A program made the position numbers. This document shows, in pieces, positions 1 to 6,000 of a stretch of 8,286 bases of DNA (positions are counted from its first letter, which is position 1; each line of letters starts with the position of its first letter). Source of the DNA: Escherichia coli (GTDB lineage Bacteria; Pseudomonadota; Gammaproteobacteria; Enterobacterales; Enterobacteriaceae); the NCBI RefSeq assembly GCF_024700885.2, contig NZ_CP117015.1, one strand, 5' to 3'.

Positions 1-3000
1 TCATTGTAATTGCCTTATATGGACGATAGTTGTGCGCATATTGCTATGTTTATGAAGATTGTTAGTTAGTTGACTTATGCATCATTGACAGCGTATCTTC
101 CATTGGAAACGAAAAAACCGCCTTGGCAGGCGGTTTTTCGAAGGTTCTTAGAGTTGGCGCTCTTTGAACCAAGGTAACTGGCTTGGAGGAGCGCAGTCAC
201 CAAAATCTGTTCTTTCAGTTTAGCCTTAACAGGCGCATAACTTCAAGACAAACTCCTCTAAATCAGTTACCAGTGGCTGCTGCCAGTGGCGATAAGTCGT
301 GTCTTACCGGGTTGGACTCAAGACGATAGTTACCGGATAAGGCGCAGCGGTCGGGCTGAACGGGGGGTTCGTGCACACAGCCCAGCTTGGAGCGAACGAC
401 CTACACCGGGCCGAGATACCTACAGCGTGAGCTATGAGAAAGCGCCACGCTTCCCGAAGGGAGAAAGGCGGACAGGTATCCGGTAAACGGCAGGGTCGGA
501 ACAGGAGAGCGCACGAGGGAGCTTCCAGGGGGAAACGCCTGGTATCTTTATAGTCCTGTCGGGTTTCGCCACCTCTGACTTGAGCGTCGATTTTTGTGAT
601 GCTCGTCAGGGGGGCGGAGCCTATGGAAAAACGCCTGCGGTGCTGGCTTCTTCCGGTGCTTTGCTTTTTGCTCACATGTTCTTTCCGGCTTTATCCCCTG
701 ATTCTGTGGATAACCGTATTACCGCCTTTGAGTGCGCTGACACCGCTCGCCGCAGTCGAACGACCGAGCGTAGCGAGTCAGTGAGCGAGGAAGCGGAAGA
801 GCGCCTTATGTGACATTTTCTCCTTACGCTCTGTTGTGCCGTTCGGCATCCTGCCCTGAGCGTTATATCTCTGTGCTATTTTCTACTTCAAAGCGTGTCT
901 GTATGCTGTTCTGGAGTTCTTCTGCGAGTTCGTGCAGCTTCTCACACATGGTGGCCTGCTCGTCAGCATCGAGTGCGTCCAGTTTTTCGAGCAGCGTCAG
1001 GCTCTGGCTTTTTATGAATCCCGCCATGTTGAGTACAGTTTGCTGCTGCTTGTTCATCTTTCTGTTTTCTCCGTTCTGTCTGTCATCTGCGTCGTGTGAT
1101 TATATCGCGCACCACTTTTGGACCGTCTTACCGCCGGTATTCTGCCGACGGGCATTTCTGTCAGACAACACTGTCACTGCCAAAAAACAGCAGTGCTTTG
1201 TTGGTAATTCGAACTTGCAGACAGGACAGGATGTGCAATTGTTATACCGCGCATACATGCACGCTATTACAATTACCCTGGTCAGGGCTTCGCCCCGACA
1301 CCCCATGTCAGATACGGAGCCATGTTTTATGACAAAACGAAGTGGAAGTAATACGCGCAGGCGGGCTATCAGTCGCCCTGTTCGTCTGACGGCAGAAGAA
1401 GACCAGGAAATCAGAAAAAGGGCTGCTGAATGCGGCAAGACCGTTTCCGGTTTTTTACGGGCGGCAGCTCTCGGTAAGAAAGTTAACTCACTGACTGATG
1501 ATCGGGTACTGAAAGAAGTTATGAGACTGGGGGCGTTACAGAAAAAACTCTTTATCGACGGCAAGCGTGTCGGGGACAGAGAGTATGCGGAGGTGCTGAT
1601 CGCTATTACGGAGTATCACCGGGCCCTGTTATCCAGGCTTATGGCAGATTAGCTTCCCGGAGAGAAACTGTCGAAAACAGACGGTATGAACGCCGTAAGC
1701 CCCCAAACCGATCGCCATTCACTTTCATGCATAGCTATGCAGTGAGCTGAAAGCGATCCTGACGCATTTTTCCGGTTTACCCCGGGGAAAACATCTCTTT
1801 TTGCGGTGTTTGCGGCAGAATCGCGTTCAGCGCGTTTTAGCGGTGCGCGTAATGCGACGTTATGGTAAATAGCGATCATGTTATTTGATGTTTTTATTGA
1901 TTATCGCTTTCCTATAAAAAAGTCATTATGACCAGTAACAAAGTAGGAATTTGGAGGGTTTTTCTTCATGCTGCCAAACCCATCTTTTCGTTTCTCTACT
2001 AAAGCTATGAGTCCTATCCCGCTCAGGTAGGCATGCGTCCTAGGTATGTCCGCTTCTGGAATAGAAGTCTGCAAGTTTATTCTTTCAAATGAAGCGCTTG
2101 TATAATGACTGTGATTGTCTCGAACAGCACATAAGTAGATGAACATCTTTAGCGCATAAAGCTCAATCTTGCTTCTTAACTTAAGTTTATGGAATGCTTC
2201 AATCCGTTTGCCATCACGAGATAACAACGCTCTACAAGGCATTTTGCACCAGTCCTTCGAACCATCAAACCCAGGGAATCGGTAGATATTTTTTCGCCTA
2301 ACTTTATCTACTGATAACAGCCCAAGTCTCTCTAAAATATCAATGCCTGATGATATTGATGATCTGCTCAGGGCTGTCAGTTCCGAGAGTTCCTCATAGG
2401 TCGCCTGAGCTGAATAATATGTTATGTAGGTATCTATGTAATGACAGAAAGCCTCTTTACTTTCAGCTCTCATGGACAGCGCTATATACAGTTTTAAGGC
2501 TGCGACCTTATGTGACGGTTTTCCTACCTTGTCATCAGTCCATAAAAGCTCTTTTAAGCGTCCATCTAGTACGAACTTTGAAGGAAATTTTACCCAAGGC
2601 TTCATTGTTACCCCATGCGCATTGCAATAAACAGGATTGATAGAAAGGCGACAAGAACCGAAACCGCCAAGACAAGCGGGGTTAGTTTGTGAGAGTTGTC
2701 TGATAAGTATTTGATTATCATTATATATTTATCGGCTTCCATATAATTTCCTATGGTTTCAGTCTTTTTGATAGGAAAATTTAAGCACGTCTTGGCAATA
2801 TCTATCTAGATATAGGTTAGTCTTTAAAATAAAATTATTCCAATTTTTTCTTTTAAAATCATCTGCTTGAAGCAAAATTGAATCGTCTTTTTAAAGTAAT
2901 CAATAGTTCATGAAAGGGATTGTAGAAGATGTTATGGCGCTGAGGGTGTGGAGCATAAAAGATGCTCTGTCTGGGTGTTTTTATAGCGTATGAAGGAAAT

Positions 3001-6000
3001 TGATTATTGAGATGCTGACTTAGATGGCGCGGCTTTAGCGGATCCGATTTTTAACTGGCGACAGCTTAGTAACGACAGACAGTCTGGTGATTGCCTGTCT
3101 GTCATTGTTGTTCATTTCAATTCAATTCGCCTAATTAGTACATATCCAAAAGCCGTGTCTGCGTACATAACAGTCGTCATTGGGCACTGTTGCAAAGTTA
3201 GCGATGAGGCAGCCTTTTGTCTTATTCAAAGGCCTTACATTTCAAAAACTCTGCTTACCAGGCGCATTTCGCCCAGGGGATCACCATAATAAAATGCTGA
3301 GGCCTGGCCTTTGCGTAGTGCACGCATCACCTCAATACCTTTGATGGTGGCGTAAGCCGTCTTCATGGATTTAAATCCCAGCGTGGCGCCGATTATCCGT
3401 TTCAGTTTGCCATGATCGCATTCAATCACGTTGTTCCGGTACTTAATCTGTCGGTGTTCAACGTCAGACGGGCACCGGCCTTCGCGTTTGAGCAGAGCAA
3501 GCGCGCGACCATAGGCGGGCGCTTTATCCGTGTTGATGAATCGCGGGATCTACCACTTCTTCACGTTGTTGAGGATTTTACCCAGAAACCGGTATGCAGC
3601 TTTGCTGTTACGACGGGAGGAGAGATAAAAATCGACAGTGCGGCCCCGGCTGTCGACGGCCCGGTACAGATACGCCCAGCGGCCATTGACCTTCACGTAG
3701 GTTTCATCCATGTGCCACGGGCAAAGATCGGAAGGGTTACGCCAGTACCAGCGCAGCCGTTTTTCCATTTCAGGCGCATAACGCTGAACCCAGCGGTAAA
3801 TCGTGGAGTGATCGACATTCACTCCGCGTTCAGCCAGCATCTCCTGCAGCTCACGGTAACTGATGCCGTATTTGCAGTACCAGCGTACGGCCCACAGAAT
3901 GATGTCACGCTGAAAATGCCGGCCTTTGAATGGGTTCATGTGCAGCTCCATCAGCAAAAGGGGATGATAAGTTTATCACCACCGACTATTTGCAACAGTG
4001 CCCGATCAAGGGATTCGAAGTCATGCGAGCCCTGCGCAAAGGACAGGCTCGCCCCTGGTGCCTGCAGCCCGGCATCAGGGGCGAGGTGCGCCTTGTGGAG
4101 AGAGCTTTTGGCATTGGGCCCTCGGCGCTGACGGAGGCCATGGGCATGCTCAACCACCATTTCGCAGCAGCCGCCTGATCGGCGCAGAGCGACAGCCTAC
4201 CTCTGACTGCCGCCAATCTTTGCAACAGAGCCCGCCGTGCTAGTCTGCTCGGTGATGGTGGAGTGAAGCCAACCCGCAATCGGGTTATGAATCTGCATCG
4301 CGATTCGCAATCAGCTGTCTCTTGAGCATGTCGAACTCCTGCGATGTTATCTCGCCGTGCTCGTGCTGCTACACCAACTTGTCCAACTCATCCGCCACAC
4401 CGCTCCCCACCACCTGCGATGGCCAGGTTGTTTGCTGGGCGCATTGGCGGAGTATCGTCTCGACCCGGGACACCCACACCGGCACAACCTTACGGGAGTG
4501 ATTCACTGTCAAAGAATCGGCCCGGTGCTCTGACGCAAGTATCGGGATGGTCACCATTTGTAAGCCGTAGACCTGAGTGGTGATCAAGACTTCGATACCA
4601 CCGACCGTACCGGTACTAATCGACGACGGTCGTGTTCGTCGCCTGCCGCAGGGACTCTGCACACCTCCGTTTACGCATGTGCCTGGAGGAGTTGGAAATC
4701 GTCGTGTTCGGGAAACATTAAACACAGGATGGCAGCGATCTGAGCCAGCACATGATCAGCTAGCTCACCATCCGGATCGACGGCCCACTGCATCGTCGCG
4801 CCAGCGATGACCGAGTGCAGGAGCAACTCAGCTGCCGCAGGAGCACCTGGGGGCAGTCGCTTGCGGATCCCCTCCACCACCGCGCGGTTCCGCTGGATCG
4901 CAAGCGTGCGTAGCTCCGGCACCTGGAGCTCGTACCAGGAGATGAGATAGTTCACCGAGAAGTCGTTGCGAGTGTTCATGCTCCGAACGAGCACCTGCAA
5001 AAATTCCCAGAGCCCTTGCGGCCCTGCGCCTATCGGTATCGCATTCAGGTAATGCCGCACCTGCTCGACGCCGCGCTCCATCATCCTCACCAGCAGCGTA
5101 TCGCGGTTGGTGAAGCGCTGGATTAACGCTGCGCGGGAGAGCCCCACCTCCTTTGCTACTCCGCTGAGCGTGAACTCTATGGGACCGCAACGCTTCAGCA
5201 CTACGGTGGCGGCCTCGAGTACCTCGTCATCGGACTTGAGCTTGGGGCGGGGCATCAGTGTTCACCTTCTGTATGGGTTGGGGCGGAGGCTGTGGCTGCC
5301 GCCGCCATTGTAGCAAATTGAAGACGGAGCGAGAGTAGAGCCACGAGCCCCGCAAACACGGCCGATACAACGAGGCCAGGGAGCGGACCAGCAAGGTCGA
5401 CAAACGCGCCGGCCGCAAGCATAACCATGGGCGAGGCTGACAGCATCACCGCCGAGACCGTGCCGAGTACCCGGCCGAGAAGTTCTGGCGGCGTGCGGTT
5501 GTAGATGGCAGCGTTGAGAATGGGAGAGACTGAGCCGGTCAGCAGTCCCACGAGCGCGCCCAACAACATCAGCACCGGCACGCCTGGCAACTGTGAAAGC
5601 AGAAGCGAGCCCACCGCAGAGCCACAAAATGCCACCGCCAGCCAGTTCTGCGCTGATATCCGGGCGCCGACCGACGCATGAATGGCAATGCCAAGGAGAC
5701 CACCAGCCCCCATCATTGAGGAGAACAGCCCGAGCTCTGCTACTTGGCGTCCTGCATCTACAAACAGCGCAGGCATGATGACGCTGCCGTTGGCGCCAAC
5801 GATGCCCACGAAGATCATCACTATACCAAAGAGAGGGCGCAGCAGGGGTTCGCTCCAGAGAAAAGCGACGCCGGCGCGCATGGAGAGAGTCGCCGTCGTG
5901 GTCATCGTCCGAGCGGCACGCGCGGGAAGCACCCACGCGCCGAGCAGACCTGCAAGGACGGAGCAGAACGCCGTCAGCCCGAGCGTTGGCGCAGCGCCAA

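Follow-up and report, generated by a model that had tools for sequence, protein, structure and literature searches.

Enterobacterales commonly carry small 'cryptic' ColE1 plasmids, and the reason for their persistence in populations is rarely clear. The stretch of Escherichia coli DNA analysed here, 8286 nucleotides in full and referred to below as the window, raises this question in a concrete form: it is the complete 8286-bp plasmid p8_MLI114 (NZ_CP117012.1) with its start shifted by 928 bp, and between a cer-type Xer site and a copy of IS26 it carries an AT-rich island (1871–3182). An earlier first-pass annotation, made by eye, had placed a sharp drop in GC content at 1871, directly behind the XerD arm, with AT-rich sequence continuing up to IS26 at 3183. 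The figures bear this out, as the XerD arm ends at 1870 and the GC content is 0.387 in the island versus 0.513 in the backbone (1–1870) and 0.597 in the IS26/mph unit (3183–8284), with a minimum of 0.25 at 2701–2900. The annotation saw a single intact open reading frame (ORF) in the island and offered three explanations, namely a cryptic second replicon, a cassette mobilised by Xer recombination, or a DNA-binding defence or regulatory protein. Only the last of these survives the present analysis, the other two being unsupported. The island proved to be intact cargo of a 3176-bp ColE1-type plasmid, and comparison of related loci shows that its conserved unit is a two-gene operon of ∼1.1 kb, in which a small membrane peptide is paired with a tandem winged-helix protein and which has been kept across mobile elements of Proteobacteria.

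A membrane peptide paired with a tandem winged-helix protein

The ORF already noticed (1901–2605, minus strand; WP_000805974.1) is indeed intact and encodes 234 amino acids (aa), but a second one had been overlooked, a 44-aa ORF (2608–2742, minus strand; MEADKYIMIIKYLSDNSHKLTPLVLAVSVLVAFLSILFIAMRMG) which stops 2 nt short of the ATG of the larger gene. The larger product had been credited with duplicated winged-helix modules, which holds true on a larger scale than was described. Comparison of the N- and C-terminal halves of the single sequence gave an alignment score of 47, against 26 ± 4.6 for shuffled sequences, and half-profiles built from 112 family members could be aligned over 96 columns by hhalign (probability 98.6%, E 9e-16), the internal duplication covering the whole protein. 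Each of the two homologous modules of ∼115 aa consists of a W-x-K-x-P strand, a long helix (AAL-x-LYI or ELYALK-x-F/Y), a winged helix-turn-helix (wHTH) and an N-x-Y strand. An AlphaFold2 model based on the 112-sequence alignment reached a predicted local distance difference test score (pLDDT) of 96.5 and a predicted template-modelling score (pTM) of 0.93. These results show a pseudo-dimeric protein whose two winged-helix modules are homologous and adopt the WH1–WH2 arrangement of Rep_3 initiators. When 1.84 billion representative proteins were searched with a profile, 718 clusters at 50% identity were recovered, 224 of them at E<=1e-30, nearly all of 220–250 aa and matched over their full length.

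Where a confident match to a characterised family had been proposed as a check, Pfam returned only a weak hit to HTH_36 (PF13730; E 9.5e-4, confined to residues 68–97) and none to Rep_3. HTH_36 was reached at E<=1e-3 by 31 of the 112 family members, with a best value of 5.6e-10, and across Pfam, NCBIfam, PADLOC and PHROGs the protein gave generic wHTH or replication-initiator N-domain matches only. Sequence searches of the PDB likewise yielded single-domain ArsR/CRP-type matches only, the ArsR match lying at residues ∼58–112 (best E 7.8e-4). Some databases name the protein an ArsR/SmtB metalloregulator; this identity was rejected, given an NCBIfam HTH_metalloreg score of 14 bits versus a cut-off of 55 and a tandem duplication of 234 aa versus a protein of ∼100 aa.

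The 44-aa peptide is composed of an N-terminal amphipathic helix, a C-terminal hydrophobic helix of transmembrane type and a short tail. Its maximal Kyte-Doolittle value over 19 residues is 2.95, and those of the family peptides range from 1.8 to 3.2. Of 41 related loci for which upstream sequence was available, 38 have a small hydrophobic ORF paired with the wHTH gene. These ORFs encode 32–53 aa with a hydrophobic helix and terminate at −13 to +8 nt relative to the wHTH start; the accompanying wHTH proteins share roughly 25–91% identity with that of the window. The peptides align in one register, almost free of gaps, and a conserved L-(E/D)-R-L motif marks their N-terminal amphipathic helix. 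Four close pairs of peptide genes showed synonymous and non-synonymous codon differences in the proportions 9:8, 14:17, 16:9 and 21:9, synonymous changes thus equalling or exceeding non-synonymous ones in three of the four. In unconstrained sequence about three-fold more non-synonymous changes are expected, and because such an excess is not seen, the ORF is a real, constrained gene that appears, from these codon comparisons, to be under purifying selection. It is because the pairing recurs and the peptides align in register and show constraint that we regard the conserved unit as a two-gene operon. The peptides had no match in NCBIfam, PADLOC or PHROGs. While the tandem winged-helix fold, and the logic of a small membrane effector with a DNA-binding partner on mobile elements, are of known kinds, the pairing of this peptide with this protein is new in that it is absent from Pfam (beyond the weak HTH_36 hit), NCBIfam, PADLOC v2, PHROGs and the literature searched.

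Upstream of the operon lies an AT-rich non-coding leader (2743–3182; GC 0.36), which in the ancestral plasmid continues beyond the point where IS26 inserted, as far as the RNAII promoter. Two elements in it are candidate operators. An inverted repeat, TTTCCTAT-N16-ATAGGAAA (2742–2783), abuts the start codon of the small ORF and overlaps its ribosome-binding site, could also be an mRNA hairpin, and is retained in an 87%-identical module of Klebsiella pneumoniae. The second, a palindromic element ATATCTATCTAGATAT (2798–2813) with the core TATCTAGATA at 2803–2812, was read from the sequence and is invariant in comparison with the related locus L004. Four other distinct upstream regions carry inverted repeats with arms of 12–16 bp, above the level of shuffled controls. 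Such palindromes would fit autoregulation by a pseudo-dimeric DNA binder. In the otherwise featureless right part of the leader there is, in addition, a hairpin with 12-bp arms (AACGACAGACAG / CTGTCTGTCATT) at window positions 3071–3106.

At two related loci (L036/L037, 127–764) gene prediction calls a 203-aa 'DUF8224' ORF immediately in front of the wHTH gene. The end of this ORF is overlapped, in a different frame, by a 32-aa hydrophobic ORF resembling the peptides of the Burkholderiales type, so that one or other call may be mistaken.

Genomic contexts and possible function

The pairing was found on plasmids, an integrative and conjugative element and a phage-plasmid. It is the only cargo on plasmids of 2.5–3.2 kb, including Klebsiella plasmids of 2503 and 2880 bp on which the homologue is the only annotated gene, and to be the sole cargo on such minimal plasmids is a usual trait of selfish modules for stability or defence. 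Neighbourhoods were tallied in 19 distinct contexts with flanking sequence, a count that has no background control and leaves the ranking of the readings given below provisional. Restriction-modification or defence genes were present within ∼5 kb in nine of these contexts (ToxN; a type I methyltransferase; type III restriction-modification; dcm; hsdM; Mrr_cat/putAbiC/HEPN; type I restriction-modification with SIR2; a PD-T4-6-type kinase; Peptidase_U49), toxin-antitoxin genes were nearby in five and rep/par genes in nine.

At two loci a gene for an Mrr_cat-type nuclease follows the wHTH gene at a distance of 22–43 nt (L015, 6782–7660, on a Pantoea plasmid; L035, 7668–8531, on a 41-kb metagenome contig). 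The two nucleases are 66% identical and the corresponding wHTH proteins 68%; because the divergence of the one parallels that of the other, the comparison indicates long co-inheritance in one sub-lineage, where the cassette may have a stable variant with three genes. The 285-aa protein encoded downstream at L024 was considered as the same third gene and rejected, as it is unrelated to the Mrr-type proteins of these two loci.

Taken together, these features led us to favour, tentatively and with a probability of roughly 0.35, an addiction module or a defence module of the abortive-infection type, in which the tandem wHTH protein represses and restrains while the peptide acts on the membrane. 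In such a module the wHTH protein would bind the palindromic operators in the AT-rich leader and repress the operon, and would also restrain the peptide, either directly through the conserved N-terminal helix or through its expression. When peptide, linker and protein were modelled with AlphaFold2 as one fused chain, the peptide was predicted at a pLDDT of 90–96, and together with the conserved N-terminal helix this confidence is compatible with a peptide–protein complex. If control were lost, upon plasmid loss or phage infection, the peptide would damage the inner membrane and stop the cell. The module would thus be built on a replication-initiator fold, accompanied in one sub-lineage by the co-inherited Mrr-type nuclease gene.

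Known systems offer partial parallels. Hok/Sok, TisB and abortive-infection systems with small transmembrane effectors resemble the cassette in that a tiny hydrophobic peptide with a single helix is found on plasmids near toxin-antitoxin or defence genes, a parallel that extends to the retention of the cassette as the only cargo of tiny plasmids. In type I toxins, control is exerted by antisense RNA and not by a co-translated 234-aa DNA-binding protein; the cassette peptide also differs in its conserved N-terminal amphipathic helix and matches no known toxin or PADLOC model. Two-domain wHTH antitoxin-repressors such as AbiEi of type IV toxin-antitoxin/abortive-infection systems autoregulate through inverted repeats and neutralise a partner from their own operon. 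No sequence relationship to AbiEi was detected, its partner is a nucleotidyltransferase and not a membrane peptide, and it is not a tandem duplication.

Several points weigh against an addiction or defence role. The toxicity of the peptide is assumed, and the cassette neighbourhoods, which also contain rep/par genes, may be general cargo hotspots. A search of PADLOC-DB v2.0 gave no defence-model match for either protein, the wHTH protein finding only weak, generic winged-helix models such as Csa3 (7.8e-4), and nothing on the family or the cassette turned up in the literature searched by accession, system description and HTH_36. A promoter scan of the coding strand found no consensus sigma-70 promoter. 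Finally, one family member (L019/L020) is without the peptide.

Should the addiction or defence reading be true, it would explain why these plasmids persist; the only cargo of the 3.2-kb lineage and of the 2.5–2.9-kb Klebsiella plasmids is this conserved and unstudied two-gene cassette, and the plasmid of the window has in the meantime become a carrier of the macrolide resistance gene mph(A). It would also add a new effector–sensor pairing to the catalogue of defence and toxin-antitoxin systems and reveal a Rep_3-like initiator fold re-used beyond replication.

The most serious competitor, itself doubtful, is a plain regulatory unit with no part in killing or defence, consisting of an autoregulated transcription factor and a non-toxic small membrane protein that modulates a host membrane complex or sequesters the regulator. 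The wHTH matches to regulators of the ArsR, MarR and CRP types and the conserved upstream palindromes would suit it, as would the fact that many small membrane proteins of bacteria are regulators and not toxins. Such a unit leaves unexplained, however, why it should be retained as sole cargo on plasmids of 2.5–3.2 kb, and also the recurrent defence and toxin-antitoxin neighbours and the co-inherited nuclease.

It is unlikely that the peptide is instead a tether which anchors the tandem wHTH protein with its bound DNA to the inner membrane and so positions or retains the mobile element. The overlapping genes suggest 1:1 co-production, the amphipathic N-terminal helix with its L-(E/D)-R-L motif is conserved and modelled with high confidence in the fused chain, and the cassette often adjoins rep/par genes, all of which speaks for a tether; yet the large carrier plasmids already have ParA/ParM systems, and no centromere-like repeat array was found near the cassette. 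We consider improbable an undescribed anti-phage or anti-plasmid immunity in which the replication-initiator fold would sense invading origins or replication proteins and release the tail-anchored peptide (and, in some lineages, the Mrr-type nuclease) to abort infection.

Two contexts may be described more closely. On a 119-kb contig (L038, 6849–8787) the cassette stands between a complete type I restriction-modification system (HsdM/S/R) and an SIR2_2 protein with weak PADLOC matches to Aga_SIR2 (2e-08) and PDC-S21 (4e-07). On the 110-kb Klebsiella phage-plasmid pJN2-26 (L034, 4877–5777) a distant member of ∼26% identity lies beside a RepB replication gene, with a 40-aa hydrophobic ORF just upstream, and matches of similar identity (∼26%) on Klebsiella plasmids of ∼106–137 kb may be on related elements.

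Likeness to Rep_3 initiators and the replicon question

The architecture of the 234-aa protein bears directly on the proposal that the island is a cryptic second replicon, in which the protein would act on the AT-rich leader as a Rep_3-like initiator of the iteron type; we judge this very improbable. Rep_3 initiators (RepE of F, π of R6K and RepA of pPS10; PF01051 with PF21205) are, like the cassette protein, plasmid-borne, 230–300 aa long and made of two mutually homologous winged-helix domains (WH1–WH2) in one chain, and among solved structures only Rep_3 initiators (π and, probably, RepE) match both domains together. The first-pass annotation had likened a segment of the protein to a motif of RepE. 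That motif does exist, as PYAMRLYESLCQYR in the consensus of the RepE-family profile, and hhalign places the ELYALKMFIYLCAVRDN of the 234-aa family upon it, in the region where the cassette helix motif ELYALK-x-(F/Y)-(L/I)-YL aligns with RepE; the likeness is nevertheless remote, as the profile match, although colinear over 137 columns and both domains, is only borderline (45%, E 2e-4). PHROG families annotated as 'replication initiation protein' match the N-terminal module (1e-7), and the AT-rich tract adjoining the gene would agree with an origin. HTH_36 proteins, whose Pfam model 31 of the 112 family members match in this module, include phage O/DnaD-like initiators and the Reps of small alphaproteobacterial plasmids and of 1.5-kb E. 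coli plasmids, and for some of them a role as Rep of a small plasmid is accepted (PMC3832669, PMC6209633, PMC7105644). They differ from the cassette protein in having one such domain joined to a helicase-loading or other C-terminal domain and in being the initiator of their replicon, whereas the module of the cassette is duplicated, has no extra domain and belongs to an accessory gene.

Neither tandem or direct-repeat arrays nor iterons were found in the island, as the first-pass annotation had already remarked, and none were found in 300 bp of sequence preceding the operon at 22 distinct loci, where repeat copy numbers never exceeded those of shuffled controls. The island lacks a DnaA box, the sole one in the window being located at 705–713 in the ColE1 origin region, and a search for such boxes in the 22 upstream regions likewise found none. 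Pfam Rep_3 (PF01051) and PF21205 matched neither the window protein nor any of the 112 family members (0/112), while all RepE relatives carry PF01051 (+PF21205). All 13 small plasmids examined that carry a family member have another replicon: 11, among them the window plasmid and its 3176-bp ancestor, encode RNAI, a Cobetia plasmid has a Rep gene of its own and the remaining one has RepL; the large plasmids carry RepE, TrfA, IncFII or RepB. Moreover, we know of no precedent among Rep_3 replicons for a conserved membrane-peptide partner. The evidence thus says that the cassette is not a replicon, and the 234-aa protein is probably a very distant relative with Rep_3-like architecture that stands outside Rep_3 membership. 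The actual replication control of the plasmid is that of a ColE1-type replicon, with RNAI at 109–208 (minus strand; Rfam RF00106, 93.6 bits) and an annotated Rop coding sequence. A 37-aa coding sequence labelled 'replication initiation protein' (window 263–376, minus strand; 1191–1304 in the record) lies inside the ColE1 RNAII region and looks like an annotation artefact, not a true initiator.

Next to the cassette, the cer-type core (1842–1870, plus strand) consists of an XerC arm, a 7-bp central region and an XerD arm, GGTGCGCGTAA-TGCGACG-TTATGGTAAAT, in keeping with the 6–8-bp central region of cer-type sites; 0.01 such cores are expected by chance. The notion of an island mobilised as a unit between Xer sites, which draws on the mere 30 bp between this XerD arm and the stop codon of the wHTH gene and on the occurrence of cer core plus cassette, at ∼87% identity, in a different K. 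pneumoniae ColE1 backbone, has next to no probability, given that the Xer-site scan found no second site in the plasmid and that in most other plasmids the cassette adjoins the RNAII promoter or other genes and not cer.

The carrier plasmid and its IS26-mph(A) insertion

The first-pass annotation had supposed that IS26 truncates the island and that partner genes might be missing, and had recommended a search for an untruncated relative. Such relatives exist: plasmids of 3176 bp from E. coli and Salmonella (CP099278.1, NZ_CP093389.1) are collinear with window positions 1–3182 plus 8285–8286 at 99.8% identity. The additional 5102 bp of the window (3183–8284) form an IS26-bounded unit with mphR(A), mrx(A) and mph(A), which lies in the leader, outside the cassette, ∼100 bp upstream of the RNAII/RNAI region. 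The two IS26 copies occupy 3183–4002 and 7465–8284, with 14-bp terminal repeats at 3183, 4002, 7465 and 8284, and the unit is flanked on both sides by the 8-bp target-site duplication CGTCATTG, whose left copy is at 3175–3182 and whose right copy spans the circular junction (8285–8286 and 1–6); the empty site of the 3176-bp plasmids has CGTCATTG once. The IS26-mph(A)-IS26 unit therefore came later, as a simple insertion into non-coding leader sequence of the 3176-bp ColE1-type plasmid, and because the duplication flanks the unit and the uninterrupted plasmid holds nothing extra, IS26 truncated nothing. Among 5426 complete E. coli genomes the island was present in seven, each time plasmid-borne, and six of those plasmids were of the ∼3.2-kb form.

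The 3176-bp ancestor retains just a small ribbon-helix-helix 'MobA' accessory gene (window 1329–1652, plus strand) and lacks a relaxase coding sequence, although MOB-suite calls it mobilizable (MOBF).

The two IS26 copies differ at one base (window 3552 in the left copy, 7834 in the right). In the left copy this changes a CAG codon of tnp26 to TAG and splits the transposase ORF into pieces of 135 and 64 aa, and because of this in-frame TAG an intact Tnp26 is encoded by the right copy alone. A short ORF adjoining the left copy (3930–4178, plus strand) seems to resemble the C-terminal end of the IS6100 transposase, which would fit a widespread module, IS26-mph(A)-mrx-mphR(A)-IS6100 remnant.

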